Below are positions 141 through 16,970 of a stretch of DNA of 64,000 bases, in pieces. This stretch comes from Bacteroidia bacterium (GTDB lineage: Bacteria; Bacteroidota; Bacteroidia; NS11-12g; UBA9320), in NCBI GenBank assembly GCA_965216465.1, contig CBDCFW010000006.1:960001-1024000 (forward strand). Reading direction: 5' to 3'. Numbering within the stretch: position 1 is the stretch's first letter; each line of letters begins with the position of its first letter. The notes under the pieces are model-generated. The model made no database searches. It was given only the letters and a program-made list of their open reading frames with translations, and was not told the DNA's origin. Made by a program: the position numbers and the translations under genes.

Positions 141-911
141 TCATCTGATATAACGGTTCAACGCGTTTATACTACTACTAAATCCAAATCCTTGATTTAC
201 TATAAAGTAGTTCTCAGGATCGGTTGTATTATGATAAGCCATTTTGGCGATATCTAATTTCGATGATTCAAAATCCATTTCGTTCATAAGCACTAAAACT
301 TGACGACTGGTTATTGGGTTGTTTCGCACATATTGTCTTGCGATTGAGAGCCTTTCACTTTCGAAAGATGCTTGTCTAATCATGTTCTGAGCAACATTGA
401 AGTTTGACTGCCTGTTATAACGCGGACCACGGTTATCTCTGTAATCACGTTGGTAGTCATAATCTCTATAGTTTCTGTAATCTCTGTAATCACGTCTTTG
501 AGGTTGTCTAGGACGTTGTCTACGCATTGGTTGTATGCGGTCAACAACTAGTCTACCTCTTGGCGTAATTCGAGCAAACACAACGCTGTTTCTAGGAATA
601 TGTATTCTTCCTCTAAAAAACATCGTATTGTGCCGTGGGTGATTAAACTCATTACCTCTGTAGCGGTAATCTCTATGGTGTCGATGTCCACGATTGCCAC
701 GGTTACGAGCTTCTCTCACAGTTAGCAAATGATTGCCTGGTTGAATAAACTCAATGTTGAATTCACCTCCTCGTGAGAAGTATTGCTGGCCACCAATAAA
801 GGCAGTAGACCTAAATGTATTCGTAGTAAGATATAGTTTGGAGGCCTGCGCTTCCAACGCAGTTAAAGCAGTTAGTACTAAAATGGTTAAAAATGTAATT
901 GTTTTCTTCAT
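141..911 (-). CDS. Secreted DUF4476-like protein with Arg/Asp/Tyr-rich linker
   Basis: Signal peptide; C-terminal SFESERLSIARQ...FESSKLDIAKMAY..TTDPENYF.V...F.FSSS pattern recalled for DUF4476. Confidence 0.7.
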   Translation of the reverse strand: MKKTITFLTILVLTALTALEAQASKLYLTTNTFRSTAFIGGQQYFSRGGEFNIEFIQPGNHLLTVREARNRGNRGHRHHRDYRYRGNEFNHPRHNTMFFRGRIHIPRNSVVFARITPRGRLVVDRIQPMRRQRPRQPQRRDYRDYRNYRDYDYQRDYRDNRGPRYNRQSNFNVAQNMIRQASFESERLSIARQYVRNNPITSRQVLVLMNEMDFESSKLDIAKMAYHNTTDPENYFIVNQGFGFSSSINALNRYIR

Positions 912-1057: not shown

Positions 1058-1082
1058 TTACTCTACAGTAACGGATCACTCT
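1058..1082. other. Left attachment junction carrying the displaced original glmS 3' end
   Basis: Minus strand of 1058-1072 reads GTT ACT GTA GAG TAA (V-T-V-E-stop), the same peptide end as glmS; element sequence ggatcact follows the GTAAC core. Confidence 0.9.
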
Positions 1083-1430
1083 CCAAAGATACCAACCTCC
1101 GAAGACCTATCGAACGGTAAGGGTTACTACCTCACGATGGTATTACAAGTATCCTCTCCCAACCTCTGGACTTCACCGTACAGTGACTACCAGTCAAAGT
1201 TGTTTGAGATCATTAAGACCAAACATGAGGACGAGGGATTGAACTTCGTTCAGATAAGTGATTGGTTGAACGAGAACCACTATAAAACTCCTCGGGGTAA
1301 GGTGTTCAAAGAGAACCATGTCTGGAGTATATACACCAAGAAGATGAGGAGTATCCAACGGTTCTCAAGGGAGAACAATACGGAGGTTCTATCGACTGGT
1401 GTTGATGTAGTCAACTACGTTCCTGATTAA
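1073..1430 (+). CDS. Detached 3' portion (118 aa) of the serine integrase gene; recombinase-like HTH domain
   Basis: In frame with the integrase across the circle junction (shown by ORF 12863-13333 on the minus strand); motif GLNFVQISDWLNENHYKTPRGKVF resembles the integrase recombinase domain. Confidence 0.75.
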
Positions 1431-1554
1431 CCCAACTGATAGGTCTTAGTCTGTTTTAAAAAACTGACGACATATATAGGGGGTTGGGGTTTGTGTTTCC
1501 TTTTACTGTTGTGATTAGTGGTATATATTGAGTAAACTATGGTTATATGTACCT

Positions 1555-2191
1555 CTATATTAGTTCTTTATGTAAGGATTTATATGTCTTCTTTACCTTA
1601 CTTATAGTAGTTTGAGATACTCCTAGTATCCTACTGATATCTTTGTAACTATACCTCTTATCTAGGTATTTAAGGATATCCTTTGACTTCTTACGTTCTA
1701 AGTATTGTTCTGGAGTATATGATGTTCCAACCCTTCGTCCTATGTATACCTCCGGATTGGTCATTTTTTTTTAATCTGATCCCCTCCAATTGTCTTTGAC
1801 GTATGGACTCCCTTTCAAAACTGTACATCACCGACAGGATGGACAATAATAGTTCACTGAACTTGTCTGGATTTCCTTCACTATCAAAGTTCCTGATGTT
1901 GGGATTACGACAGACCACCGTCACGTTGTTTTCAGTGAACAGTTTCCAGTTTGATAGTACATCGATGGTATTCCTCCCAAGACGATCAATTGAGTGAACC
2001 TCAAGGTGGGTTAGTTTACCCTCATCCATGAGTTTCTTTATCTCCTTCCCTTTCCCTCTTTCAAAGAGTGGAACGGAACCAGATATTACATCACAGAACA
2101 CGTAATCGAACCCTTTAAGGTTCTGTAACTGTCTTTTGTGGGTCTGACCTTCATCGGTACTGATACGGGAATAAAACACCTTCATATTCAC
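1555..2191 (-). pseudogene. Serine resolvase/invertase, frameshifted copy (or homopolymer sequencing error)
   Basis: Identical to 12103-12738 but split into 166 aa and 69 aa ORFs by one extra base in the T-run at 1764-1772. Confidence 0.8.
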
Positions 2192-2197
2192 TTCATT

Positions 2198-2316
2198 TTA
2201 TGGGGTAACGCTAATGTACCCTATTAATGGGGTATACGCACTAGTATTGGGGGTGTTTTTAGTACTCGTACGGGTACACCGTAAACTTGGAGTCGAATGG
2301 GTTACGCCAACCAAAT
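2198..2316. promoter_or_regulatory. Putative res site / resolvase operator (copy at ~11978-12096)
   Basis: Directly upstream of the resolvase: imperfect IR atggggta-N9-taccctat, repeated atggg(g)t..cgc units, near-palindrome gtactcgtacgggtac (2262-2277). Confidence 0.5.
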
Positions 2317-2515
2317 ATTGACCGGATGATCCTGGACTAGAGACTCCAGAATCCGTGATTTTACTGGGTGGTTATGTTCCGCCAACCAAATTGTCCCCCA
2401 GGGATCTCGTCCCGGGAGGGGTGGGAGGTGTATCCCCTATTATATAGGTGGGAAAGTAGGATATTAGAGAGTAGACCCTACCTTGAAAAAAATATTTCCC
2501 AATTTTTTCTGGAAA

Positions 2516-2989
2516 TTAGGGTCGGTTGTCAAGATAAAACTGATTGTATGTGTGTAGGAGACCTATTAGAGGGGAGGAGAAGTCAATCTGGTGGGATTTG
2601 TCGAATCCTAGTTCATTTCGGAGGAACTCTTCAAGGATGACTTTATCTTTTTGTTGTAGGTGGAAAACTGAACCTCCGTAATCAATTACATACCTGTCAG
2701 GAATTAAACTATTTTTAAATAATTTTAGTCCGTTATTCGAAGAGGTAACCCTCCTAAATTGTTCAATATTATATCGAAAATCCTCCGTATCCCCTTCTAT
2801 TTCTACGTTTTCATTAAAATTGATCGGATTCTCATCATTTTGAACCGTACGACAATTTTTACCCAAAAAACTTGTAACGGTGAGTCTTATAAAATCGGTC
2901 ATATTCAACCCTGTTTTTTGGAGGTAATTTTGGATTTGGACAAAGGTGTCTTCGTCCACCCTTATTCTAATTTGTTTCGTAAACTTCAT
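2516..2989 (-). CDS. Ribbon-helix-helix (CopG/MobC-like) DNA-binding protein, 157 aa
   Basis: ATG at 2989; N-terminus KQIRIRVDEDTFVQIQNYLQKTGLNMTDFIR fits the RHH pattern; divergent from the polymerase-like gene. Confidence 0.6.
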   Translation of the reverse strand: MKFTKQIRIRVDEDTFVQIQNYLQKTGLNMTDFIRLTVTSFLGKNCRTVQNDENPINFNENVEIEGDTEDFRYNIEQFRRVTSSNNGLKLFKNSLIPDRYVIDYGGSVFHLQQKDKVILEEFLRNELGFDKSHQIDFSSPLIGLLHTYNQFYLDNRP

Positions 2990-3054
2990 ATGATATAAGT
3001 ATCTACTTGTATCACAAAAGACAATATCCCACCTATTTATATTAAAATTGAACA

Positions 3055-4665
3055 GTGATGTTCGGACTAATTCCCTCACATATCGACACAGAAAGGTTGG
3101 TCCAAATTGAAGGATTGAGTAATACCCAAAAGAACAGGTTAAAAGAGGGTATGGACTACTTCCTATCACGAATTACGAAGGGGAACCACTCACTTCATAA
3201 TAACAAGGGTTACGAGATAATAAATGACAAGACCCTCTCAGGAATCATAGGAAAAGAAGAACGATTTTCACGATCCTCTCGTATAAAAAAGATATTATTA
3301 GATGAAGGTATCATTGAAACTAAGAATCACCGTTCAGGTCACTATTCCACTGGTTACAGGTTAACCGAAAAACATAATACAGGTATCCTGAAAAGGGTTG
3401 AGTACAGTAAACGAATAGAGAACAAAATCACCAAACTATTAAAAGAAGGTAGAAGAGAAGAGTTTGAAGAATTTGAAGTGGAGGACCGAAACGTAAACCA
3501 TCAGTATTTATATGATCAATTTGAAAAACATACCATAACTACAAGGACTGAGGTTGGTGAATTCATAAGGGAATTGGGAGTTGAGTTATTACCGAAATTT
3601 CAAAGGAAAAAGAAATTAAAAACAGAGAACTTGAAGTCTCTTTTTAATCATCTCGGTTATTTACTCTCAATGGTTGGATCAATAAATAACGGAGAATTTA
3701 ATCCGAGTACTTCACTATCTAATAATAGACTCAATTCATTATTAACCCGTTTCCCGAAAACACTCAGACCATTTTTACTGATCAATAATGATTCAATCGG
3801 GGAAGTTGATCTGGGAACTTCACAACCATTCATATTATCAACCATATTAGGGGAGGATTTTTTAACGGACAATCAACTGGGTTCTTACAACCTATCAACC
3901 ATATATCCGAAACTTAAAATTCAGATAGACAATGTAGGTGGTATGTCTCCATCCAATAAACCCGGAAATAATAATAAGGTACTATGTGTTTTTCTGGACG
4001 ATGAGAACTACGAGTCACTTTTATCCTTTTCAAATTTTGATTTTCAGGAAGACTTTTATGGACACATCGTATCAGAAGGTAGAATTCGAAATCCTGTCAA
4101 GTTTGGTAAAATTACTAGAGGAGATGTAAAGGGTAAAATAATGATACTCCTTTTTCACAATAATGAGTACCATAGGGAAGATGACCTTATAATACAATTG
4201 GTCAAATCTGTTTACAGTGGGTTGATTGAGTTTATTGAGAGGTTTATCCAAATTTTTGGAGGTAGTGAATTCTCCATACTACTTCAAAGAGTTGAGTCAT
4301 TTCTCGTTCTAGATTCTGTGAGTAGACAGATATTCAGAACTAACAACGACATTCCCATATTTACTATTCACGACTCTGTGATGACTACACGAAAATTTAT
4401 AGAACCCGTCAAGACAATTTTTGAAGATACCATTCAAGAAATAACTCAAAAAAATCCCAACGTCAAGATGACCGATTATACAGAAATTCCGCGAGTAACT
4501 AGTGAATTGGTAGAAGAAATAGAGTCCATAACAACAATTTCTTCTGAGAATATATACGAGAAGAAACGACGATGGATATTCTCCTCAAACATTAAAAAAG
4601 GGATTGACTTATTATTTCCAAAAGAGGATCGAACCGAATGGTATACTCTACTTGGGATTGAATAA
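3055..4665 (+). CDS. Family-A / T7-RNAP-superfamily polymerase-like protein (TV-Pol-like)
   Basis: Motif order R.....T..PK.LR, EVDLGTSQP (motif A), DFY, RGDVK...LF (motif B), LQRVES, FTIHDSV (motif C). Confidence 0.6.
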   Translation: MMFGLIPSHIDTERLVQIEGLSNTQKNRLKEGMDYFLSRITKGNHSLHNNKGYEIINDKTLSGIIGKEERFSRSSRIKKILLDEGIIETKNHRSGHYSTGYRLTEKHNTGILKRVEYSKRIENKITKLLKEGRREEFEEFEVEDRNVNHQYLYDQFEKHTITTRTEVGEFIRELGVELLPKFQRKKKLKTENLKSLFNHLGYLLSMVGSINNGEFNPSTSLSNNRLNSLLTRFPKTLRPFLLINNDSIGEVDLGTSQPFILSTILGEDFLTDNQLGSYNLSTIYPKLKIQIDNVGGMSPSNKPGNNNKVLCVFLDDENYESLLSFSNFDFQEDFYGHIVSEGRIRNPVKFGKITRGDVKGKIMILLFHNNEYHREDDLIIQLVKSVYSGLIEFIERFIQIFGGSEFSILLQRVESFLVLDSVSRQIFRTNNDIPIFTIHDSVMTTRKFIEPVKTIFEDTIQEITQKNPNVKMTDYTEIPRVTSELVEEIESITTISSENIYEKKRRWIFSSNIKKGIDLLFPKEDRTEWYTLLGIE

Positions 4666-4711
4666 GATTAACCCGCGTATTCGTAAGACTTTTTCATTAA
4701 CCTGAGAGGTT

Positions 4712-7669
4712 TCATTTATTTCCAATCTGTTTAACTACTTCCTTATACATAAAATCAACCAACATAGGGAACACCGTTTTTTTCATGACATTTCGGTAGA
4801 AATCCATTCTATCTCCATGATAATCCACCACTGTATCTTTGAATAGATTGTTGAAGTATTCCTTCTTTACATCCTCAGTGTTATTCCCATTGATGACCTT
4901 CATCAACTCATCGTTGGTATTCATTCGTTCTTGAATCTGTTCTAAGGTTACTCTGTCTTCTTCTCCTAAATTCTCACCAAACACCTGGTTGATCTTATCA
5001 ATGATATCCGATAGGAGAACTTTTTCGTCTTCACCTCTACCACCACCTGATTCACCTGAGATACCATAAACTTCACCTTGTTCTTCAACCAACGTAAGGT
5101 TTGTTTCTCCCATCATTTGAATACGGAGTGAATCTAAATCAACGGAATCTACAACCGATACTCTCTCAGACTCTCTCTTCGGTAGTTTCTTATTTAAGAA
5201 CCTCAGAAATACATATGATTTCTCCCATTTAACTTCTCCAAAAGATGAAATCTGAGAGATGTAAGAATACATTCTAATGAAAGATTGAATCTTGGATTTG
5301 AAATCATCCTGTTCATCCTCATTCAACCGTTCATTGTAGGTGTCTACTACAACATCAATGATGGGATGTAATCGTTCATCGGATTCTGAATTGGAGTAGA
5401 ACTCCTTACAGAATTCATCAATTTGATATTGGGTATAGAGACCGAATTGTTCGATTTCAAACAACATCTGGTACAACTTGTCGGGATCAGTTTCCTCGGT
5501 TAATATGGTTGAGGTATAATAAGGTTGAAACGATTCAATGATATCATCAGTTTCGTTTACAAAATCAAGAATAAAGGTATCCGTCTTTCCGGTCTTTGTT
5601 CGGTTCAACCTTGACAGGGTTTGAACACACTGGACGCCACTCAACTTCTTATCGATGTACATTGATTGTAGAAGTGGTTCATCAAACCCTGTTTGGAATT
5701 TATTGGACACAATGAGAATACGAAATCTCGGGTCTTTCAATCCATTAGGTATGGATGTGTTCACCAACCCATTTTCGGTATTTAATGAGGTTTCGGTGTT
5801 CTCCCTTCCATTGTGGGATATTGTTCCACTAAACCCAACTAAACAACTATAGGGTAGATTTCTATCCTTCATTTGTTTTACCATCTCTTCGTGGAAGAGT
5901 ACACAGTGTTTACGAGAACGAACTACCACCATCCCTCTACCTCTTCCGTTGATTTTTTTAGAGGTATTCCTAATGAAATGATCTAAGATGATGGATACCT
6001 TTTGACGAATGGTTTCGGAATGAGAGTCAACGTAGTTCACCAACTCTCTCTTCACCTTACTCTCAGGTACTTCTACATCTTCTTCAGAACTCTGAAGAAC
6101 CTTAAAGTATCGTTTGTAGGTGGTGTAATTCTGAAGAACATCTAAGGTAAACCCTTCGTGAATGGATTGTTTCATCGTGTAGTAATGGAAGGGTACGAAA
6201 TGACCGTCCTCATTCTTTCTACCAAAGAGTTCTAAGGTTTTGTTCTTCGGTGTCCCAGTGAACCCAAAGAACGAAATATGGTTTTGTTTACCACGAGATT
6301 CTATTTCTTTACGAATCAAATCTTCGTAATCTACTTCTTCCTCGTCTTCGTTTACAGAGAGTGATTTTTTTAAGTGTTTAGATGTTTCTCCCGTTTGTGA
6401 GGAGTGAACCTCATCAATCACTACTCCGAATGTATGTCCCTTCAGTTCTGAGATAACCTCAGAAACAAATGGGAACTTCTGAATGGTCGTAATGATGATA
6501 TCCTTTCCTTTCTCTAAGTACTCTCTCAATTGTTTAGAACCCAACTCAACTGGGTTCACAACCCCATCAGTTTGTTCTAATTTGGATACGGTGTTTTGAA
6601 GTTGTTTATCCAACACTTTTCTATCCGTAACCACCAAAATGGTGTCAAACATTCGTTTGGTATCCCCATCTTTTTGGTACAGAGAAGTGAGTGTATGTGA
6701 CAACCAACCTATCTCAAAACTTTTACCAGAACCAGTGGTATGTTGAATGAGGTAATTGTGACCAACTCCTTCTTCCTTAACCGTACTTCTGAGTTTACGG
6801 ATTACATCCAATTGGTGGTATCGAGGGAAGATCTGAACATCAAACTTTTTGGTAACTACCTTACCCTTCTTCGGATCCCATTCTCTATCTGATTCTTCAG
6901 AAATCAATACAAAGTTCTCGATGATATCCAATAAGGAATCAGGAGTTAAAATATCATTCCATAGGTACTCTGTACGGTAATCTCCTTCTACAATTGGGTT
7001 GGTAATTCCCTTGTTGTACGGAAGAAACTTTGTACCTAGTCCTCTGAGTTGAGTACTCATACTCACCTTATCGTTATCTACACAGAAGTGAACCAAACAC
7101 CGTTTGAACTTCAGTAGTGGTTCTTTCGGGTCTCTGTCCTTTTTGTATTGATTTTGTGAATGAAATATGTTTTGTCCAGTTAGTTGGTTCTTCAATTCCA
7201 TTGTAATTATGGGGATCCCGTTCAGGAAGATCACCATATCTATGGAGTTGTTGTTTCGTTTGGAGTAATGGAGTTGTCGAACAACTACAAAACGATTCTG
7301 AGAATAGAGTTGTTGGTGTTCTTCATTCAAAGAAGATTTGGGTTTGAAGTACACCAAATGGAAGTTACATCCTCTTGTTTCAATACCACCTCTCAGAGTA
7401 TCTATGATACCTCTTTGAGAAATGGTTCTATCAATGGTTTTTAGAATGTGGGAATCGGTAGAAGAATCAAACTGAGTGAAGAGTTTATCGTATTCCTCTT
7501 GTTGGGTGGATTTGATGAACTCTATTACATCTTCCTCAACCAAACAGAGTTCTTTATCATACTTAGATTCAAATTCATTAGAATGAGTAAATGAATGGTG
7601 ATACCCATTCTTGAGAAGTGATTTCTCAATCCATTCTTCAAATCGTAGTTCTGTGAATTTCTTACTCAT
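4712..7669 (-). CDS. hsdR: Type I restriction enzyme subunit R
   Basis: N-terminal D-x12-ELK nuclease motif, HTTGSGKS Walker A, DEVH Walker B, FTGTP, QTGFD, QTLSRLNR. Confidence 0.95.
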   Translation of the reverse strand: MSKKFTELRFEEWIEKSLLKNGYHHSFTHSNEFESKYDKELCLVEEDVIEFIKSTQQEEYDKLFTQFDSSTDSHILKTIDRTISQRGIIDTLRGGIETRGCNFHLVYFKPKSSLNEEHQQLYSQNRFVVVRQLHYSKRNNNSIDMVIFLNGIPIITMELKNQLTGQNIFHSQNQYKKDRDPKEPLLKFKRCLVHFCVDNDKVSMSTQLRGLGTKFLPYNKGITNPIVEGDYRTEYLWNDILTPDSLLDIIENFVLISEESDREWDPKKGKVVTKKFDVQIFPRYHQLDVIRKLRSTVKEEGVGHNYLIQHTTGSGKSFEIGWLSHTLTSLYQKDGDTKRMFDTILVVTDRKVLDKQLQNTVSKLEQTDGVVNPVELGSKQLREYLEKGKDIIITTIQKFPFVSEVISELKGHTFGVVIDEVHSSQTGETSKHLKKSLSVNEDEEEVDYEDLIRKEIESRGKQNHISFFGFTGTPKNKTLELFGRKNEDGHFVPFHYYTMKQSIHEGFTLDVLQNYTTYKRYFKVLQSSEEDVEVPESKVKRELVNYVDSHSETIRQKVSIILDHFIRNTSKKINGRGRGMVVVRSRKHCVLFHEEMVKQMKDRNLPYSCLVGFSGTISHNGRENTETSLNTENGLVNTSIPNGLKDPRFRILIVSNKFQTGFDEPLLQSMYIDKKLSGVQCVQTLSRLNRTKTGKTDTFILDFVNETDDIIESFQPYYTSTILTEETDPDKLYQMLFEIEQFGLYTQYQIDEFCKEFYSNSESDERLHPIIDVVVDTYNERLNEDEQDDFKSKIQSFIRMYSYISQISSFGEVKWEKSYVFLRFLNKKLPKRESERVSVVDSVDLDSLRIQMMGETNLTLVEEQGEVYGISGESGGGRGEDEKVLLSDIIDKINQVFGENLGEEDRVTLEQIQERMNTNDELMKVINGNNTEDVKKEYFNNLFKDTVVDYHGDRMDFYRNVMKKTVFPMLVDFMYKEVVKQIGNK

Positions 7670-8927
7670 CCGTAGTTACTTTTAGTTTACCTGTTACCAC
7701 CTCTGAGATAAGAGATTGACGATACTCTTTAAGGAGTTCCATCCTCTTTTCTTCAATGGATATGGTGTTATCTATTAATTGAGTTTGATCATCCAAATAA
7801 TCAACAATTTGTTGTTGTTCATTTAAACTCGGAAATGGGAGATACATACTTAAAAACTCAATTGACGGTAACCTCCATCTTCCAAGAGTAGAAACTCCTC
7901 GACCTAGTCCATAGAAGATTTTCCGGGTATAACATAATTGAAATATGTACAGATAATACTCGTTACAAACTCTGTCATTCGACTTTGTAAAAACTCGATA
8001 ATCAGGACTTGTAACCCCTAGTTGTTTTGACAAATCAACATATCCTGTAATTAAATCCATATGATTCATCACAAAATCATTTTCATAGACAAACTGATAT
8101 TTTGAATAGTCCATTGAGTGTTGTCCTTCGTTGTTCTCCAAATCCTTCACTTTAAGACCTCTTTGAGTTACGGAAAGAACATCATACCCTAATTCACCAC
8201 AAATTCGTTTGTTGATAGAAAAGAGTTGTTTGAGTTTTACAAAATCCCAATGATTGGGGATCCTCCCTATCCACTCCACACCACTATCCTTCATGTCTAC
8301 ATTAGGATTCAATCCTTTTGTAACTACTTCGTTGATCAGAGAGGTTTTTTTCTTTTTAAGTAGTTCAATCTTTCGTTGGGTTTTATCAATCAGTGAATCA
8401 ATGATTGAGGTTTTGGTGTCTAAAAAGGATACGATTTGTTGTTGTTCGGAGAGGGGTGGTAGAGGTAATTTAATGTTTCCGAAAACATCTTTTGTCAAGT
8501 GAGTCATTGTTGAACCGTGAGATTCATTTGAAAGTTCATCAATTACTCCTTGAATGACCCAATAATAGAATTTCCGAATCAATTTTTCATTAAGTTCAAC
8601 TTTGAATATGTGTTGATTTAGAACTCCAACATCTCTTTTCCATTCAAACAAACCAAGTGTGGTAGACCAACTAAAAAGATAATCACCTTTCTTAATGATA
8701 TATTTTGGATCTATTTCCCCATTGTAAAAATTTTCAGAACCTTTACCCTTTGTTAAGTTTTGTATTCGAATGATTAGTCTTCCTGAATCTCCCCAATCAG
8801 TTGGTTTGAATGGATATCCATTTATGTAATCACCAACATATTTCATTTTGGTACGATTCCAATGAGAGGGGATCTCACCAATCCAGTCAACTCCAGAATC
8901 TTTATATGACTCATACCTCTTCATCAT
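7662..8927 (-). CDS. hsdS: Type I R-M specificity subunit
   Basis: Duplicated KDSGV.WIG.IP.HW and P.L.EQQQIV.(F/Y)LD conserved regions flanking two TRDs. Confidence 0.95.
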   Translation of the reverse strand: MMKRYESYKDSGVDWIGEIPSHWNRTKMKYVGDYINGYPFKPTDWGDSGRLIIRIQNLTKGKGSENFYNGEIDPKYIIKKGDYLFSWSTTLGLFEWKRDVGVLNQHIFKVELNEKLIRKFYYWVIQGVIDELSNESHGSTMTHLTKDVFGNIKLPLPPLSEQQQIVSFLDTKTSIIDSLIDKTQRKIELLKKKKTSLINEVVTKGLNPNVDMKDSGVEWIGRIPNHWDFVKLKQLFSINKRICGELGYDVLSVTQRGLKVKDLENNEGQHSMDYSKYQFVYENDFVMNHMDLITGYVDLSKQLGVTSPDYRVFTKSNDRVCNEYYLYIFQLCYTRKIFYGLGRGVSTLGRWRLPSIEFLSMYLPFPSLNEQQQIVDYLDDQTQLIDNTISIEEKRMELLKEYRQSLISEVVTGKLKVTTDE

Positions 8928-10633
8928 TCAACAATCTGATTTAACAGGTTTTGAGATTCTTCTTCTAACTTCAACAAGTCATTGGTGATTTCCTGTGAAG
9001 AACGAAGTGGTTTGTACTTGTAGAAATATTTGGTGAAATTGATCTCGTACCCCACTTTACTCTTGTCAAAATCAATCCAAGATTCAGGTAAATGTGGTTC
9101 AACCTCTCTACTGAAATACTCTTCGATATCTTGATCCAATGGAACCCTTTCGTAATCTCTGAGTTTAGAATCAGGTTTAGGTGATCCATCTTTTTTACAT
9201 TCAATTTTCCCATTCTCTTTGAGAGGTTGTTCTATGGTAATCTTAGTATATCCAAAGAACTCATTGGGGTAAATCTTAGAGATTTTAGATTCTTCAAACC
9301 CATTGTATGTGTTTAAGATCTGTTGAGTTTGTTCTTCATCAATGTACTTACGTTTACTACCTAAACTCTTCTTCATTATTTTATGAAGAGAAGATCCATC
9401 AATCAGTTGAACCTTACCATTTCGATTGGTTTTCTTCTTATTGGTTACTATCCAGATATATGTAGAAATACCCGTATTAAAGAATAATGAATCGGGTAGA
9501 GATACAATACACTCTAACCAATCATTCTCAATGATCCATTTTCGGATTTCTGATTCACCACTTCCAGCATCTCCAGTAAAGAGGGGAGAACTGTTGAACA
9601 CTATTCCAATACGAGAACCTTCAGGTTTCATTTTAGAAATTAGGTGTTGAAGAAACAACAAGGATCCGTCAGATGTACGCGGAGTACCCACCGAAAATCT
9701 CCCCATTGAGTTTTTAGATTCTTCTTCAACATAACTCTTCTCTGATTTCCAACTGACTCCAAAGGGTGGATTGGTAATCATATAATCAAACTTTCTTCCC
9801 TCGTGTTGATCGTTTGATAGAGATGAACCCAATTTGATACGTTCAGGGTCTTCCCCTGTAATCAAGAAATCAGATTTACAAATAGAGAAGGTCTGTGGGT
9901 TTAGTTCTTGACCGTAGAGTTGGAACATTACATCAGATGAGATATTATCATTAACCCAATCCTTACCAATGGTTAACATTCCTCCTGTACCACAACAAGG
10001 GTCGTAAATTGAACGAATGATACCTTCACCCTTCAGGTTTTCATCATCACCACTAAACACCATTGAAACGAGAAGATTCACCACATCTCTTGGAGTGTAG
10101 TGTTCTCCACTTGTTTCGTTACTCATCTCGGAGAACTTACGAAGAAGTTCCTCAAAGATGGACCCCATTGTATGGTTATCTACTTTGTTGGGGTGTAAAT
10201 CAACCTCAGTAAACTTATCTATGAGGGAGTAGAGTTTCTTATTTTTAATGAGTTTCTCAACGGGTTTATCCAATTGGAAATTTTCCAATATCTGATGAAC
10301 GTTATCAGAATACCCATTCAGGTAGTTCGGGAAATTGATCCTCAATCCATTCGGGTCAGATTTCAAACGAGTTAAATCGTAGGGAGAATAGTTGAAGAAG
10401 TTTAATCCTGTTTTCTTTTTGATGATTGGAGTTGGGTCGTCAATACCACTTTGAAGAAGTTCATTGTATTGTTTTACCACTTCATCTTTATGAGGTTCAA
10501 TCAAACAATCCAGTCGTCGAAGTACAACGAATGGAAGGATCACATCTCCGTATTCGTGAGGTTTAAATAATCCTCTTAACTCATCGTCACAAACCCTCCA
10601 TATGAAGGATGATATTTCTTGGTAATTACTCAT
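8924..10633 (-). CDS. hsdM: Type I R-M N6-adenine methyltransferase subunit
   Basis: GEHYTPR, YDPCCGTGGM (motif I), GQELN, NPPF (motif IV), LFFNTGI. Confidence 0.95.
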   Translation of the reverse strand: MSNYQEISSFIWRVCDDELRGLFKPHEYGDVILPFVVLRRLDCLIEPHKDEVVKQYNELLQSGIDDPTPIIKKKTGLNFFNYSPYDLTRLKSDPNGLRINFPNYLNGYSDNVHQILENFQLDKPVEKLIKNKKLYSLIDKFTEVDLHPNKVDNHTMGSIFEELLRKFSEMSNETSGEHYTPRDVVNLLVSMVFSGDDENLKGEGIIRSIYDPCCGTGGMLTIGKDWVNDNISSDVMFQLYGQELNPQTFSICKSDFLITGEDPERIKLGSSLSNDQHEGRKFDYMITNPPFGVSWKSEKSYVEEESKNSMGRFSVGTPRTSDGSLLFLQHLISKMKPEGSRIGIVFNSSPLFTGDAGSGESEIRKWIIENDWLECIVSLPDSLFFNTGISTYIWIVTNKKKTNRNGKVQLIDGSSLHKIMKKSLGSKRKYIDEEQTQQILNTYNGFEESKISKIYPNEFFGYTKITIEQPLKENGKIECKKDGSPKPDSKLRDYERVPLDQDIEEYFSREVEPHLPESWIDFDKSKVGYEINFTKYFYKYKPLRSSQEITNDLLKLEEESQNLLNQIVE

Positions 10634-10639
10634 TTCAGG

Positions 10640-10849
10640 TCAATTTTCTTTCGGGTCGTCATAAATCAATTCCGAGGGTTTAACCCCTAGTATTTGAGAA
10701 ATACGATTTAATGTTTCAAGTGAAGGTTGTGATTTATTATTACACCACAGGTTTACACTTACTGGTGAAACACCTATTTTTATGGATAACCATTTCTGAC
10801 TTCGGTTTTGATTTTTCAAAACTTCTCTCAGATTATTAAGTTTTCTCAT
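10640..10849 (-). CDS. XRE-family HTH regulator, 69 aa, first gene of the hsdMSR operon
   Basis: ATG at 10849; LREVL...SQKWLS..IGVS..SVN.W.NNKSQPSLETL..IS..LGV...ELI. Confidence 0.85.
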   Translation of the reverse strand: MRKLNNLREVLKNQNRSQKWLSIKIGVSPVSVNLWCNNKSQPSLETLNRISQILGVKPSELIYDDPKEN

Positions 10850-10906
10850 TACGCCCAGAATCTTGGTCAAACTTAAACTAATTCTTAAAGATTTGGTAAT
10901 AAATCC

Positions 10907-10947
10907 TATTTTTGATTGAGAGAATTGGGACATTATTTGACCCAATT
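10907..10947 (+). promoter_or_regulatory. Putative -7 promoter element and operator upstream of the ART-like gene
   Basis: TATTTTTG (TAnnTTTG) at 10907-10914 followed by IR aattggg-N11-cccaatt at 10923-10947; no well spaced -33 element seen. Confidence 0.4.
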
Positions 10948-10963
10948 TCAAAGGGTATACATA

Positions 10964-11722
10964 ATGGAAGACGAGTTCTTACTTGATGAACTTAAAAACT
11001 ACATCGACTATTTCGAGGGGAGACCTTATGTCCATCATTTTCTTGTAGGGAATTCTTACGAAGTCAACATCAATGGTAAGAGTGTAAACAATTGTTTGAC
11101 AAACAATCAATATCTAGGGAAGAAAGAACTTTATGAGGAGTATTACTTGAATAGAGAATACGAAGAAGTTCTTTCGATGTTGGACAAACATAAGAGGATG
11201 GATTGGTTCATCCAACATCACGAAGAGATCTATGAAAAATCAAATAATGAAGACCAATATTATCAACTCCTAAGAGAGAATCTGGTTTACGTGGACAACC
11301 ATGAACCATACAGAAAGGAATACCCAAATTTGATCCATATAGGAAGTAATCCCCAATTGATGATGTTAGAGGATGAACGACTAAAATTGGATAAACTCCC
11401 TAATGAATTTGTTGTTTACAGAGGTGTTTCCTCAAACGAAAAAATAACGAAGAGAAACGTTCAAGGTTTACTCGGGAATTCATGGAGTCTCGACAGGGAG
11501 ATATCAATTTGGTTCTCCAAAAACCATTCGTCAAGACATCTAAATTCAAAGTATTTGGTTCTACTGACCTACCAAGTTTCAAAAACTGAGGTACTCGGGT
11601 ATTTTACGGACAGGAATGAAGAAGAAATGTTTTTAGACTACACTAGGATTGATATTGACAAAGTATCATTTGAAGAAATCCCGGAGAATTACCAGTTGAA
11701 AGTTTCCTTTGATAAAGGTTAA
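10964..11722 (+). CDS. Putative R-S-E clade ADP-ribosyltransferase, 252 aa
   Basis: VVYRG (Y-R-G 11417-11425), GNSWSLD (S-W-S 11480-11488), RNEEEMFL (11618-11626) in canonical ART order and spacing; no signal peptide. Confidence 0.7.
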   Translation: MEDEFLLDELKNYIDYFEGRPYVHHFLVGNSYEVNINGKSVNNCLTNNQYLGKKELYEEYYLNREYEEVLSMLDKHKRMDWFIQHHEEIYEKSNNEDQYYQLLRENLVYVDNHEPYRKEYPNLIHIGSNPQLMMLEDERLKLDKLPNEFVVYRGVSSNEKITKRNVQGLLGNSWSLDREISIWFSKNHSSRHLNSKYLVLLTYQVSKTEVLGYFTDRNEEEMFLDYTRIDIDKVSFEEIPENYQLKVSFDKG

Positions 11723-12102
11723 ATCTAATAGGTCTCCTACACACATACAATCAGTTTTATCTTGACAACCGACCCTAATTTCCAGAAAAAATTGGGAAAT
11801 ATTTTTTTCAAGGTAGGGTCTACTCTCTAATATCCTACTTTCCCACCTATATAATAGGGGATACACCTCCCACCCCTCCCGGGACGAGATCCCTGGGGGA
11901 CAATTTGGTTGGCGGAACATAACCACCCAGTAAAATCACGGATTCTGGAGTCTCTAGTCCAGGATCATCCGGTCAATATTTGGTTGGCGTAACCCATTCG
12001 ACTCCAAGTTTACGGTGTACCCGTACGAGTACTAAAAACACCCCCAATACTAGTGCGTATACCCCATTAATAGGGTACATTAGCGTTACCCCATAAAATG
12101 AA

Positions 12103-12738
12103 GTGAATATGAAGGTGTTTTATTCCCGTATCAGTACCGATGAAGGTCAGACCCACAAAAGACAGTTACAGAACCTTAAAGGGTTCGATTACGTGTTCTG
12201 TGATGTAATATCTGGTTCCGTTCCACTCTTTGAAAGAGGGAAAGGGAAGGAGATAAAGAAACTCATGGATGAGGGTAAACTAACCCACCTTGAGGTTCAC
12301 TCAATTGATCGTCTTGGGAGGAATACCATCGATGTACTATCAAACTGGAAACTGTTCACTGAAAACAACGTGACGGTGGTCTGTCGTAATCCCAACATCA
12401 GGAACTTTGATAGTGAAGGAAATCCAGACAAGTTCAGTGAACTATTATTGTCCATCCTGTCGGTGATGTACAGTTTTGAAAGGGAGTCCATACGTCAAAG
12501 ACAATTGGAGGGGATCAGATTAAAAAAAATGACCAATCCGGAGGTATACATAGGACGAAGGGTTGGAACATCATATACTCCAGAACAATACTTAGAACGT
12601 AAGAAGTCAAAGGATATCCTTAAATACCTAGATAAGAGGTATAGTTACAAAGATATCAGTAGGATACTAGGAGTATCTCAAACTACTATAAGTAAGGTAA
12701 AGAAGACATATAAATCCTTACATAAAGAACTAATATAG
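12103..12738 (+). CDS. Serine resolvase/invertase with C-terminal HTH (intact copy)
   Basis: YSRIST catalytic motif, SIDRLGRN, ERESIRQRQLEGI, C-terminal HTH YSYKDISRILGVSQTTI. Confidence 0.92.
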   Translation: MNMKVFYSRISTDEGQTHKRQLQNLKGFDYVFCDVISGSVPLFERGKGKEIKKLMDEGKLTHLEVHSIDRLGRNTIDVLSNWKLFTENNVTVVCRNPNIRNFDSEGNPDKFSELLLSILSVMYSFERESIRQRQLEGIRLKKMTNPEVYIGRRVGTSYTPEQYLERKKSKDILKYLDKRYSYKDISRILGVSQTTISKVKKTYKSLHKELI

Positions 12739-12862
12739 AGGTACATATAACCATAGTTTACTCAATATATACCACTAATCACAACAGTAAAAGGAAACAC
12801 AAACCCCAACCCCCTATATATGTCGTCAGTTTTTTAAAACAGACTAAGACCTATCAGTTGGG

Positions 12863-13448
12863 TTAATCAGGAACGTAGTTGACTACATCAACACCAGTCG
12901 ATAGAACCTCCGTATTGTTCTCCCTTGAGAACCGTTGGATACTCCTCATCTTCTTGGTGTATATACTCCAGACATGGTTCTCTTTGAACACCTTACCCCG
13001 AGGAGTTTTATAGTGGTTCTCGTTCAACCAATCACTTATCTGAACGAAGTTCAATCCCTCGTCCTCATGTTTGGTCTTAATGATCTCAAACAACTTTGAC
13101 TGGTAGTCACTGTACGGTGAAGTCCAGAGGTTGGGAGAGGATACTTGTAATACCATCGTGAGGTAGTAACCCTTACCGTTCGATAGGTCTTCGGAGGTTG
13201 GTATCTTTGGAGAGTGATCCGTTACAGTGGAGTAGAGCGAACGGGTCTGAAGTTGGTCCCCCAGTGTTTTCAATGGTTTGAGGACTGTTGAGTCTGGTGC
13301 GGAATTTGAATCTCCCCAAGTGGTTTTCGTCAAAAGTGGGATTTTAAGGTTGATTTTGAGGGTGTGAAGAAGGGTTTGAGAGTCGTGGTATAGAATGACC
13401 TTATCAAGAATGGAATCTAATACTGACCTTTTAAATTCAGGTGTAAGA
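12863..13448 (-). pseudogene. 5'-truncated integrase 3' end reading through an intact attP
   Basis: Translates ...TKTTWGDSNSAP...RSLYSTVT-DHSPKIPT...VPD*, i.e. integrase C-terminus fused to the left-end ORF; lacks the catalytic domain. Confidence 0.75.
13211..13235 (-). other. Intact attP (excised-circle junction), inverted
   Basis: Minus strand reads ctactccact-GTAAC-ggatcactct = element right arm + core + element left arm. Confidence 0.9.
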
Positions 13449-13506
13449 TTTTTCCAAAACGGTTCCGATATACACAGAATAATCTCTACTTTTTGGGATC
13501 ATTCAA

Positions 13507-15165
13507 ATGGAAACGTTACATATATTAATTCGTGTAAGTACACAAAGTCAAGAAGAAGATGGAACCAGTCTTCGAACCCAAAAACAACTTGGAATCGACC
13601 TATCTCGTAGGTTGAAAATGAAGTATCAAGTTCATAATGAAGGGGGAACTTCCTCCAGTAAAGATACCCTCGATAACAGACCTGTGATGTTGAATCTTTT
13701 GAGATTAATGGATGAAGGGATAGTCAAACACCTATTCGTTTATAATACTGATAGACTCTCAAGGGGGTATACCTGGTATATTATACGGAAGAAAATGGTT
13801 GACAATAACGTGATACTCTATTGTTCTACAGGAAGGTTCAATACCAGTGGGTCGATGGAGACATTGATTTTGGGAATATTATCAGAAATTTCTCAATACG
13901 ATAACAAGGTCAGAACCGAAAGATCACGTCTTGGGAAGTTGGAGAAGGTTAAACTCAATTATTATAGAGGAGGACCCCCAACATTTGGATACAAAATACA
14001 GAAAGGACAAAGGGGTTCAACACTAGAAATTGATGAATTCGAAGGTCAGATCGTTAGATCAGTGTTTAAAATGTACCATAAGGGTCACTCCGTCAAGGAG
14101 ATTAAACAGGTACTTGAGAAGGACGGAGTACGTACCCGGAGGGGTAATAAACATTGGTCATTAGGGTCACTTCAATTGATGTTGAGGAACGATACTTACA
14201 TTGGAATAGAGGAGTACCATGACAAGAAAAGTGGTGTTACGATACGAAGTGAAGTCCCTCCAATCATTCCAGTTAGGTTGTTTGAAGAGGTACAACAACG
14301 AAGAGTCAGAATTCTTACCCGTAAAGGTCAATTCAATCGGACAACACATGAGTATCTGTTTAGAGATTTTATGTATTGTCAGTGTGGATCTCCCATTGGA
14401 GGACGAATTAAACCGTCGAAATCAATCAGACAATTTTTCTGTACCCTTTCTGAAAGGAAATTTAACAAGTCAAAACCTACTTCTAAAACCTGTGAGATGA
14501 AACGATGTGTGAACATCGACAAAACAGAAGAGTTACTTTGGGATACCATTTATTCTCAACTGATTAAAACATCCGAAATGAGATTGATACTGAAAAAGAC
14601 AATCAAGGAAAACCCATCATTCTCATCAAGGGTCAGAAAACAGAAAGGGAAAATAAAAGACGAACTCAACCAAAAGGAGAAAGAATTAAAAAAGATTAGT
14701 GATGGAATCATCGACATTGAAAGAAGGAGAATTCTGAATGAATTTCAATCTGAAGACCTGTATAAAGGAATCAAAAAAGAGTTGGATAAGGAATACCGAA
14801 ATTGTCACATTCAAATTGAAAACCTAAAAAACTCTCTAAGATATTATGGGGAACAAGAGAACTGGTTCAAAACATTAGAACACTTATCAACCACCCTGAA
14901 ATCTACATCAATTCTTACACCTGAATTTAAAAGGTCAGTATTAGATTCCATTCTTGATAAGGTCATTCTATACCACGACTCTCAAACCCTTCTTCACACC
15001 CTCAAAATCAACCTTAAAATCCCACTTTTGACGAAAACCACTTGGGGAGATTCAAATTCCGCACCAGACTCAACAGTCCTCAAACCATTGAAAACACTGG
15101 GGGACCAACTTCAGACCCGTTCGCTCTACTCCACTGTAACTGATTTTGCAAGATTTCTAGGTTGA
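13507..15165 (+). CDS. Large serine recombinase (integrase), integrated-state form with host-derived tail
   Basis: IRVST catalytic Ser, DRLSR, GGPPTFGY, recombinase domain, Zn ribbon (YCQCG...FC...C), coiled coil; last residues FARFLG come from antisense glmS. Confidence 0.93.
   Translation: METLHILIRVSTQSQEEDGTSLRTQKQLGIDLSRRLKMKYQVHNEGGTSSSKDTLDNRPVMLNLLRLMDEGIVKHLFVYNTDRLSRGYTWYIIRKKMVDNNVILYCSTGRFNTSGSMETLILGILSEISQYDNKVRTERSRLGKLEKVKLNYYRGGPPTFGYKIQKGQRGSTLEIDEFEGQIVRSVFKMYHKGHSVKEIKQVLEKDGVRTRRGNKHWSLGSLQLMLRNDTYIGIEEYHDKKSGVTIRSEVPPIIPVRLFEEVQQRRVRILTRKGQFNRTTHEYLFRDFMYCQCGSPIGGRIKPSKSIRQFFCTLSERKFNKSKPTSKTCEMKRCVNIDKTEELLWDTIYSQLIKTSEMRLILKKTIKENPSFSSRVRKQKGKIKDELNQKEKELKKISDGIIDIERRRILNEFQSEDLYKGIKKELDKEYRNCHIQIENLKNSLRYYGEQENWFKTLEHLSTTLKSTSILTPEFKRSVLDSILDKVILYHDSQTLLHTLKINLKIPLLTKTTWGDSNSAPDSTVLKPLKTLGDQLQTRSLYSTVTDFARFLG
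14913..15140. repeat. Inverted repeat B, right copy (pairs with 13221-13448), 228 bp
   Basis: Reverse-complement identity from tcttacac (14913) to gtaac (15140). Confidence 0.9.
15126..15150. other. Right attachment junction; element restores glmS 3' end
   Basis: Minus strand TCA GTT ACA GTG GAG TAG; bases beyond the core are element-derived (they match the internal attP). Confidence 0.9.
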
Positions 15166-16970
15166 TCTACATTACAACCACGCATAACTGCAATGTAGTA
15201 CGAAAGAAGCTGAAGAGGAATAGTAGCCAAGATCGGGGTTAGGCAATCTTCTGTATCTGGAATTTCAATAACGTGATCTGCAACTTCTCGAACCTTAACG
15301 TCTCCTTCAGTAACAATTGCTATTATTTTACCTTTTCTTGCTTTAACCTCTTGAATATTGCTTAATACTTTCTCGTAGTAATTACGCTTAGTTGCAATAA
15401 CAACTACGGGCATTTCCTCATCAATTAATGCAATTGGGCCATGTTTCATTTCAGCAGCAGGATATCCTTCCGCGTGGATGTATGATATTTCCTTAAGTTT
15501 TAAGGCACCCTCAAGAGCAACAGGGAAATTATATCCTCTACCTAAGTAAAGGCAATTTGGAGCATCCATGTAGATGGAAGCAATCTCTTTACATTTATCG
15601 TGGCAGGACTCCAGTAATTCTTGAACTTTGGTTGGAATTGTATCAAGCTCAGCGAACATCTGACGTAGCCTATCTCGCGTTATTTTACCTCTAATGTCTG
15701 CAATACCCAATGCAAGTAGTGTAAGCACGGTTACTTGAGCGGTAAATGCTTTGGTTGAAGCTACACCAATTTCAGGTCCAGCATGAGTATAAGCTCCTGC
15801 ATGAGTAATTCTAGGAATGCTTGACCCCACAACATTGCAGATTCCGTATATGGTTGCTCCTTTTTCCTTAGCCATTTCAAGTGCTGCCAAGGTATCAGCA
15901 GTTTCACCACTTTGAGAGATTGCAATTACCAAGTCGTCTTCAGTAATAATTGGATTTCTATATCTGAATTCGGAAGCGTATTCTACTTCAACCGGAATTC
16001 TGCCAAACTCTTCAATGAGATATTCGCCAACAAGCCCAGCATGCCATGATGTGCCACAAGCTACAATGATGATACGGTCGAGGTTTCGAATTTTTGGAGC
16101 AAATTCTTCCAAACTTCTCATAGCAAATGTGAGACTGTTAGGATCAAATCTACCTCTCATAGAATCATATATAGACTTTGGTTGTTCAAAGATTTCTTTA
16201 AGCATGAAATGTTCGTACCCGCCTTTTTCCAGAGCATCTAAGCTGATTTCAAGTTCTTGTATAAAAGGAGATTTTGCAACATTGTCAATAGTCTTTAGTG
16301 TCATCTCACCATCGTGAATAGCCACAATTTCGTTATCGTCTAAGTAGGTTACCTTTTTAGTGTATTCAACTATAGGAGTTGCATCGCTAGCTAAAAAGAA
16401 TTCTCCTTCACGGTCGCTGATTCCAACTACCAAAGGACTTCCTTTTCGAGCAGCAATAAGCGTGTTAGGATCATTCTTGCTTAAGATAACAATGGCATAA
16501 GCACCAACTACTTCATTGAGGGCTAAACGAACTGCTTCTAACAAGTCAACACCTTCTTGTTCTTTTATTTCTTCAATTAAATGAGTAAGAACTTCAGTGT
16601 CAGTGTCACTTACAAACTCATGACCTCTATCAAGCAGTACTTTTTTAAGCGTATCGTAGTTCTCAATTATACCATTGTGAATAAGTGCAATGTCGCCACT
16701 CTGAGATAAATGAGGATGAGCATTAATGGTGTTAGGCTCACCATGAGTAGCCCAACGCGTGTGACCTATTCCTCGAGTTCCTTCAACATTTTTACCGGTA
16801 GTATTTTCTACAAGTTCAGAAACTTTTCCTTTGTTTTTATATACTCGAAGTGCTCCATTTAAAATGGCAATACCAGCACTGTCGTATCCACGATATTCTA
16901 ATCTTTGAAGACCCTTTACCAAAAAGTCATAGGCTTGGTCTGGTCCGTAGTAAGCAACGATTCCGCACAT
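15126..16970 (-). CDS. glmS: Glutamine--fructose-6-phosphate aminotransferase
   Basis: MCGIV N-terminus, GHTRWATHG, C-terminal PRNLAKSVTVE. Confidence 0.98.
   Translation of the reverse strand: MCGIVAYYGPDQAYDFLVKGLQRLEYRGYDSAGIAILNGALRVYKNKGKVSELVENTTGKNVEGTRGIGHTRWATHGEPNTINAHPHLSQSGDIALIHNGIIENYDTLKKVLLDRGHEFVSDTDTEVLTHLIEEIKEQEGVDLLEAVRLALNEVVGAYAIVILSKNDPNTLIAARKGSPLVVGISDREGEFFLASDATPIVEYTKKVTYLDDNEIVAIHDGEMTLKTIDNVAKSPFIQELEISLDALEKGGYEHFMLKEIFEQPKSIYDSMRGRFDPNSLTFAMRSLEEFAPKIRNLDRIIIVACGTSWHAGLVGEYLIEEFGRIPVEVEYASEFRYRNPIITEDDLVIAISQSGETADTLAALEMAKEKGATIYGICNVVGSSIPRITHAGAYTHAGPEIGVASTKAFTAQVTVLTLLALGIADIRGKITRDRLRQMFAELDTIPTKVQELLESCHDKCKEIASIYMDAPNCLYLGRGYNFPVALEGALKLKEISYIHAEGYPAAEMKHGPIALIDEEMPVVVIATKRNYYEKVLSNIQEVKARKGKIIAIVTEGDVKVREVADHVIEIPDTEDCLTPILATIPLQLLSYYIAVMRGCNVDQPRNLAKSVTVE

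Follow-up and report, generated by a model that had tools for sequence, protein, structure and literature searches.

A serine integrase gene of Bacteroidia that contains its own attP site, and a possible inverted-repeat switch of its C-terminus

A 64,000-nucleotide stretch of a Bacteroidia bacterium genome (GenBank assembly GCA_965216465.1, contig CBDCFW010000006.1, positions 960,001 to 1,024,000 of the forward strand; this whole stretch is called the window hereafter) harbors a 14,068-bp (14.07 kb) island located at the last codons of glmS. The island encodes a large serine integrase whose attachment site, attP, lies inside the integrase gene itself. Upon integration, an extra C-terminal domain of about 105 amino acids (CTD) is removed from the enzyme, and a complete canonical integrase remains. 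The island also keeps a second, inverted copy made of the 3' part of the integrase gene (int), attP, the CTD exon and a small serine recombinase gene. We are highly confident of this anatomy and of the location of attP inside the reading frame as a design of the whole family. No description of a serine integrase with attP inside its own open reading frame (ORF) was found in the full-text literature, a search that left subscription journals largely outside.

The integrase reading frame and the ends of the island

The features needed to follow the integration event are:

13507..15165, + strand: integrase ORF, short form, 552 amino acids, with resolvase, recombinase and zinc-ribbon/coiled-coil regions
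1071..1430, + strand: left copy of the CTD exon, 119 codons (TDHSPKIPT...VPD-stop), separated from int by integration
1068..1072, + strand: crossover core of attL, GTAAC (from the sequence)
15136..15140, + strand: crossover core of attR, GTAAC (from the sequence)
15126..16970, - strand: glmS, the integration target, 614 amino acids, ending ...NLAKSVTVE-stop and remaining whole (ORF list and Pfam)
141..911, - strand: host gene with DUF4476 (Pfam), the left flank of the island, adjoining glmS in relatives

The short ORF crosses the right junction and ends in ...YSTVTD-FARFLG-stop on the antisense strand of glmS, its final 40 bases being shared with the 3' end of that gene. Joining position 15140 to position 1073 preserves the frame: codon 545 stays Thr and is followed by D-H-S-P-K, giving a long form of 663 amino acids (544 + 119). 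The island itself contains this joined form, on its minus strand (12863..13450, open over 195 codons). The first-pass annotation of the window had described both forms and the joined copy, and had concluded that attP lies within the integrase ORF and that the C-terminus is replaced upon integration; its coordinates and sequences proved to be exact.

The crossover falls at Tyr-Ser-Thr-Val codons that are the antisense image of the glmS end. After integration through the attP downstream of int, the enzyme has 552 amino acids with a 6-residue tail derived from antisense glmS, and its CTD exon stays behind at attL, 14 kb from int. Host promoters are unlikely to drive this orphan exon, since the host genes on both sides are read the other way. 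The target gene is not damaged: its original last codons (V-T-V-E-stop, antisense) are found directly left of the attL core, and glmS remains whole because the island brings replacement V-T-V-E-stop codons at the attR side.

An uninterrupted attB was found between the neighbouring glmS and DUF4476 genes in all 7 of the same-genus loci fetched. Since the left half of attL joined to the right half of attR reproduces this attB, the size of the insert is fixed at 14,068 bp. No second copy of the island was found in the source genome, which is assembled in 6 contigs. The only sequence common to attL, attR and the internal junction is GTAAC, the position of cleavage being sequence-inferred. Among metagenome loci of both the attP type and the attL type, a core TAY-TCN-ACN-GTN is found, and the bases to its right are variable. 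The comparison of family cores, together with the GTAAC of the window, points to a crossover at the GT of the Val codon or directly beside it.

Conservation of the design and domain structure of the enzyme

A protein search yielded 267 hits, and the counts that follow cover the 119 listed homologues. A glmS-antisense tail (YSTVT-D/L-F/L-A-K/R-...G) ends 56 of them, prolonged by 0, 11-12 or 34-37 residues according to the position of the first stop in the antisense frame. Another 17 carry a variable linker after YSTV and then the conserved CTD of about 105 residues, their full length being about 650-694 amino acids. The remaining 46 comprise sequences cut off where a contig stops, distantly related conventional enzymes, and members of a sub-clade with a different target. 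In this sub-clade the junction residues are others (..LLH..), presumably reflecting the use of another attB, and both forms are present: short (556-579 amino acids; P0065-67, P0069, P0072, P0076 and P0077) and long (663-664 amino acids; P0063, P0068 and P0070). Therefore, the design is independent of glmS. As a side observation, P0120, a distant relative of 522 amino acids, ends in ...MVTVE, the last glmS residues read in sense; it may target glmS in the opposite orientation, with both genes keeping their ends.

Metagenomes were scanned with a 5-row alignment, and 79 loci were obtained. Wherever both the pre-attP part and the CTD were detected (19 of 19 loci), they formed a single frame without a stop, over five different linker lengths, which indicates that the joined frame is not due to chance. 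Homologues that stop before attP or do not conserve the distal frame would have spoken against the first-pass annotation; the check was run, and the read-through frame is kept both in the protein ends and in the 19 loci. No match to the joined C-terminal part was detected in plasmid and phage collections. Among species-representative genomes, and with the source genome counted, the element was found in 6 of 66 genomes of the family, 3 of 191 of the order and 3 of 401 in a sample of the phylum.

The domain content of the integrase is that of its class. A resolvase domain (PF00239, E 2.4e-13) spans residues 8-148, and its Arg-x-Ser motif is an R-V-S invariant in 36 family members. The first DNA-binding domain (DBD1, the recombinase domain PF07508, E 3.8e-17) spans residues 179-266. 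The second (DBD2) is a zinc ribbon with four invariant Cys, and in a structural model long helices at 337-466, placed between its strands, represent the inserted coiled coil. PF13408 is not reported for P0001 and is precomputed for more distant relatives. The 552-residue form aligns to residues 35-463 of the 545 of the SPbeta integrase. Judged by domains, in sequence and model, the short form lacks nothing of a canonical large serine recombinase (LSR).

The long form was examined in an AlphaFold model of a 667-residue family member, 63% identical to the window protein, built from a 36-row alignment (mean pLDDT 77). In this model the canonical domains end in two strands at 483-506, after which a disordered stretch (510-563, pLDDT about 30) makes a linker of some 55 residues that contains the attP-encoded YSTV. 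The CTD follows at 565-661 as a strand, three helices and a strand (pLDDT 82-93). According to the model, attP is placed in linker-coding DNA, where the protein tolerates the demands of the site.

A recombinase-like helix-turn-helix (HTH) had been noticed in the extra domain by the first-pass annotation, and it is indeed there: PF07508 matches the CTD with E 0.0007-0.001, which is below the gathering score, and the fold is a generic HTH. The neighbours of the CTD in the Atlas are small 'recombinase fragment' clusters in which 53-66% of the members have PF07508. The best structural matches in a wide structure search reached Z 5.3-7.4 and included DBD1 of the SPbeta and Bxb1 integrases. A Foldseek comparison of the CTD with the PDB gave no match at E <= 0.001, and a BLASTP comparison with DBD1 of the integrase itself was not significant.

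In a complex prediction, the two strands of the CTD lie against the last strand of DBD2 (494-508), and the domain also touches helices 333-370 and 449-457 where the coiled coil begins. The docking obtained an ipSAE of 0.76, compared with 0.02 for the best of 3 controls; this mark is reached by 116 of 157 solved complexes and by 2 of 215 mismatched pairs. The runs, made with a custom alignment and with two chains that belong to one polypeptide, agreed in at least 85% of contacts, with a partner pLDDT of at least 75. In the available text of PMC11722253, the SPbeta recombination directionality factor (RDF) is described to bind the region of DBD2 and the coiled-coil base. Hence, the CTD is predicted to dock where directionality factors act.

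Nested inverted repeats and a possible C-terminus switch

A repeat search of the window revealed two nested pairs of inverted repeats (IR) in the island, a design that the first-pass annotation missed, together with the small serine recombinase gene that forms part of it. The pertinent features are:

1066..2570: left arm of IR-A, about 1.5 kb, with the CTD exon, the gene for the small serine recombinase and some 380 bp on the upstream side of that gene
11724..13227: right arm of IR-A, inverted
13217..13451: left arm of IR-B, 235 bp
14910..15144: right arm of IR-B, 235 bp, encoding the last helix and beta-hairpin of DBD2 and half of the linker
12863..13450, - strand: spare inverted 3' end of int, comprising segment B, an intact attP, the linker and the CTD exon
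13221..13225, - strand: core of this internal, intact, inverted attP
13452..14909, + strand: unique segment I (the cassette, 1.46 kb), with 55 bp upstream of int and int codons 1-467, flanked by IR-B
12103..12738, + strand: intact small serine recombinase, 211 amino acids, with resolvase domain and HTH (Pfam)
1555..2191, - strand: small serine recombinase, left copy, split by a frameshift in a T9 run into 166 + 69 amino acids

The order in the window is thus DUF4476 gene, attL, arm A, cargo segment M, inverted arm A', inverted attP, inverted B', segment I, B, attR and glmS. The IR-B arms differ at 2 positions, and the IR-A arms are identical except for one homopolymer run. That run, T9 at 1764-1772 and T8 at 12521-12528, is also the sole difference between the two small recombinase copies, and could be either a long-read homopolymer error or a real slip-strand difference. 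As read from this layout, the excised circle would hold two inverted repeats of 1.73 kb each. The cassette as found reads into glmS and produces the short integrase; if flipped, it would read into the spare copy and produce the 663-residue form, without any need for excision.

The small serine recombinase gene adjoins the CTD exon in most of the metagenome loci. Its best NCBIfam match is the Mpi DNA-invertase family, with 47 bits against a cut-off of 272. A 10-nucleotide consensus for invertase sites was also considered and rejected, as it occurs in the window 10 times against 10.1 expected by chance, and nowhere in the repeats. No motif common to the inner boundaries of both repeat pairs was seen. 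Just inside segment I, 35-55 bp upstream of the int start, lies a dyad-like motif with 6-bp half-sites about 6 bp apart (window 13470-13490), also found upstream of int in L030, L032, L034, L037 and L043; it may be part of an operator or promoter.

Comparable arrangements are found in relatives. One, an IMG/VR contig with an integrase of 47% identity, contains int, inverted B-attP-CTD and the small recombinase, and its cargo is framed by inverted arms measuring 1858 nucleotides or more; the perfectly palindromic ends of this contig probably reflect a path that the assembler took through the same graph. In five contigs from metagenomes (L032, L037, L043, L055 and L065), the first 99-148 nucleotides are inverted B, lying 33-55 bp upstream of the int start, and G542 has an inverted CTD upstream of int. 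Among the 79 metagenome loci, segment I reads into B-attP-CTD, forming a full-length gene, in 8 contigs, whereas 13 have the divergent arrangement of the window. Where the element adjoins glmS, the cassette points toward that gene in G000, G002 and G542; in G011 it points away, and an orphan B reads into antisense glmS. The repeat copies are essentially identical within an element despite differences of 35-60% between the proteins of different elements, a pattern that indicates continuing exchange between the copies. Side observations include L040, with inverted small-recombinase arms that are 79% identical and a second large serine recombinase gene at 7931-9496, which may represent two nested or tandem elements.

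These arrangements led us to consider a switch. The cassette would flip by homologous recombination or through the neighbouring small recombinase, and flipping would toggle the integrated island between the short and the long integrase. The CTD, when present, would dock in cis on DBD2 and the coiled-coil base, and its presence or absence would alter either the pair of sites recombined or the activity of the enzyme. The DNA arrangement would in this manner take over part of the job of a directionality factor. In a bolder version, which we think rather unlikely, the choice between staying and leaving would depend on small-recombinase flipping of a cassette with the promoter and the 5' part of int between two fixed 3' ends. 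The choice would yield an integrase with or without an RDF-like domain, and directionality may be encoded in DNA topology with no separate factor. Two versions of the life cycle can be envisaged:

(i). The CTD would keep the enzyme in integration mode, the relaxed short form could excise, and a flip to the long form would lock the island.

(ii). The short form would be inert or integration-only, so that the island is locked, and a flip would restore a long form that excises, perhaps with another factor.

A switch of directionality or activity, as already proposed in the first-pass annotation, is plausible, and the predicted docking site of the CTD favours it. As a whole, with anatomy and switch taken together, we regard this as the best explanation and lean slightly in its favour; the toggle with its functional consequence, considered by itself, is the doubtful part, possible but a little short of probable.

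Several observations weigh against the switch. The excised circle can encode the long form only, and therefore the long form must be able to integrate, which argues against a pure reading of the CTD as an excision factor. Short forms are far commoner in databases (56 against 17 among the listed homologues), and the variable length of their tails indicates that the tail itself is not selected. The fold of the CTD is a generic HTH whose best Z, 7.4, is in a range called common; its docking is a model, and no similarity to known directionality factors was detectable, with no NCBIfam hit. Regarding orientation, inversion of the cassette has not been seen in the source strain: public data comprise assembled Logan contigs only, which confirm attL and the internal junction and present the orientation of the window, so that the flipped state is neither shown nor excluded. 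Repeat B (235 bp) exceeds assembly k-mers, and contigs with the other orientation, G011 included, could be wrong walks. Long forms in metagenomes may derive from excised circles alone, as circles contain both junction types. Both orientations are found across genomes and contigs, none within one population, and the counts are tiny because the element is rare in species-representative genomes; repeat misassembly is possible.

Part of this evidence also fits an explanation in which truncation is a side effect of a compact 'suicidal' bacterial integrase. The short form would be inactive or irrelevant, a separate factor would set direction, and the spare inverted copy would keep a complete int gene after integration, via the other attP or by occasional recombination. 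The accidental short-form tails of variable length speak for this explanation, as does a long form that must integrate, being the only one encoded by the circle; in addition, several island ORFs without assignment could include a directionality factor. Because such factors have no signature in common, the first-pass remark that no separate RDF gene is evident may or may not hold. Archaeal integrases with att inside int are described as suicidal in the available text of PMC8371274. However, the short form retains every canonical LSR domain and is unlikely to be simply dead, and the domain removed is predicted to sit exactly at the region that controls directionality. We consider the side-effect explanation unlikely, if far from negligible.

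A different proposal is that the inverted repeats serve the small serine recombinase, either for cargo inversion or for a 2-micron-style amplification and resolution of the circle, and that their overlap with the 3' end of int is incidental. The gene does lie within the large repeat, after the CTD exon in most loci, and its best family match is a DNA invertase family. Yet that match is far below the cut-off, and inversion of the cargo between identical arms alters nothing nearby. Moreover, the repeat always has attP and the 3' part of int and stops 33-55 bp upstream of the int start in six lineages, an extent that a C-terminus swap would need. We therefore find this proposal improbable. An assembly artefact, in which integrated and excised reads were merged into a false inverted structure, is more improbable still, to the point of being nearly dismissible. 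The identity of the repeats and the palindromic IMG/VR contig, probably a wrong walk through the same graph, would fit such an artefact, but the inverted junctions 2570/2571, 11723/11724 and 13451/13452 cannot arise by mixing linear and circular forms. A separate Logan assembly of the source strain covers cargo, right arm, attP, B and the 5' part of int without difference: one contig spans 6019..13936, with 12600-13936 around the spare copy included, and a second one stops precisely where IR-A ends on its inner side. The same layout is found in relatives whose integrases are 45-65% identical, and the low number of contigs in the source genome likewise speaks against an artefact.

Comparison with known systems and cargo of the island

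In the large serine integrases studied so far, attP is located outside the gene. Enzymes of this class join short attP and attB sites at a 2-bp crossover, with no arm sites, in a one-way reaction that a directionality factor reverses by switching the enzyme to attL x attR. The enzyme described here resembles that class (SPbeta SprA, phiC31, Bxb1, A118/LI, CcrAB) in its resolvase catalytic domain, DBD1 and zinc ribbon with coiled coil, and in the short core with simple hybrid attL and attR sites. It departs from the class in having attP in the ORF, an extra CTD, predicted to be docked, that is removed by integration, and a spare inverted attP.

Inversion switches of tail-fibre genes, namely the G segment of Mu with Gin and the C segment of P1 with Cin, have inverted repeats in a coding region and produce alternative C-termini. 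The glmS island likewise has inverted repeats in a coding region (the 235-bp IR-B, with five or more further lineages) and a small serine recombinase gene alongside. The difference is that the putatively invertible piece comprises the promoter and the N-terminal part, the 3' ends being fixed, and that the protein switched would be the element's own integrase. In the integration-dependent immunity of mycobacteriophages, attP lies inside the repressor gene and the integrase is a tyrosine recombinase. There, as here, integration cuts a gene at attP and changes the C-terminus of a regulatory protein; however, the gene cut by the mycobacteriophage tyrosine integrase is that of the repressor, and in the present case it is the recombinase gene itself.

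Archaeal tyrosine integrases of the SSV1 type have att within the integrase gene, which is split upon integration, an arrangement presented as exclusive to archaea in the available text of a 2021 review (PMC8371274). The location of the att site inside the integrase ORF is shared with the family described here; unlike the archaeal case, the enzyme is a serine recombinase, the only part lost is an accessory domain, and a complete canonical enzyme plus a spare copy are kept. Integrases with att inside their own gene are thus present in bacteria as serine enzymes, although among tyrosine enzymes the arrangement has been described as confined to archaea.

Engineered fusions of an integrase with its factor are represented by phiC31 Int-gp3 (PMC5737554) and by SPbeta Int-RDF (PDB 9dxd). 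Integrase-RDF fusions are similar to the long form in that an LSR carries a C-terminal domain of about 75-105 residues on DBD2 and the coiled-coil base, a placement that is predicted in our case. The present fusion, in contrast, occurs naturally, shows no sequence relationship to known RDFs, and is made or broken by recombination itself. Serine integrases are major tools for genome engineering, and the control of their direction is an active structural question. The family would offer a natural system for its study, in which recombination adds or removes a domain predicted at the control point and inversion could reverse the change, and is a possible source of self-limiting or switchable integrases.

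The cargo of the island consists of the following:

2571..11723: unique cargo segment M, 9.15 kb, with the genes below and further ORFs of no assigned family (Pfam)
4712-7669: type I hsdR (Pfam)
7662-8927: type I hsdS (Pfam)
8924-10633: type I hsdM (Pfam)
10640-10951: XRE regulator (Pfam)

Cargo was examined in the window and in L030, L033, L037, L039, L040 and L077. That of the relatives is devoted to restriction and defence throughout: type I restriction-modification (R-M), type ISP together with GmrSD, type III R-M, and orphan methylases with a DUF6291 protein. The islands at glmS are defence-carrying, vehicles by which restriction and defence systems circulate within freshwater and marine Bacteroidota.

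Two small ORFs, 2368-2640 (+) and 11666-11926 (-), start within the IR-A arms and extend into the cargo. About 67 N-terminal residues are common to both and their ends differ; no family match was found for them in Pfam or NCBIfam. In L018 (G045:C4), a CTD-like ORF (37% identity) lies 58 bp after glmS on the same strand, which is opposite to the orientation in the window. In L048, L086, L093 and L094, a CTD exon is followed by the glmS end 0.6-2.4 kb further on, with no integrase between; these loci may be remnants or deleted elements.

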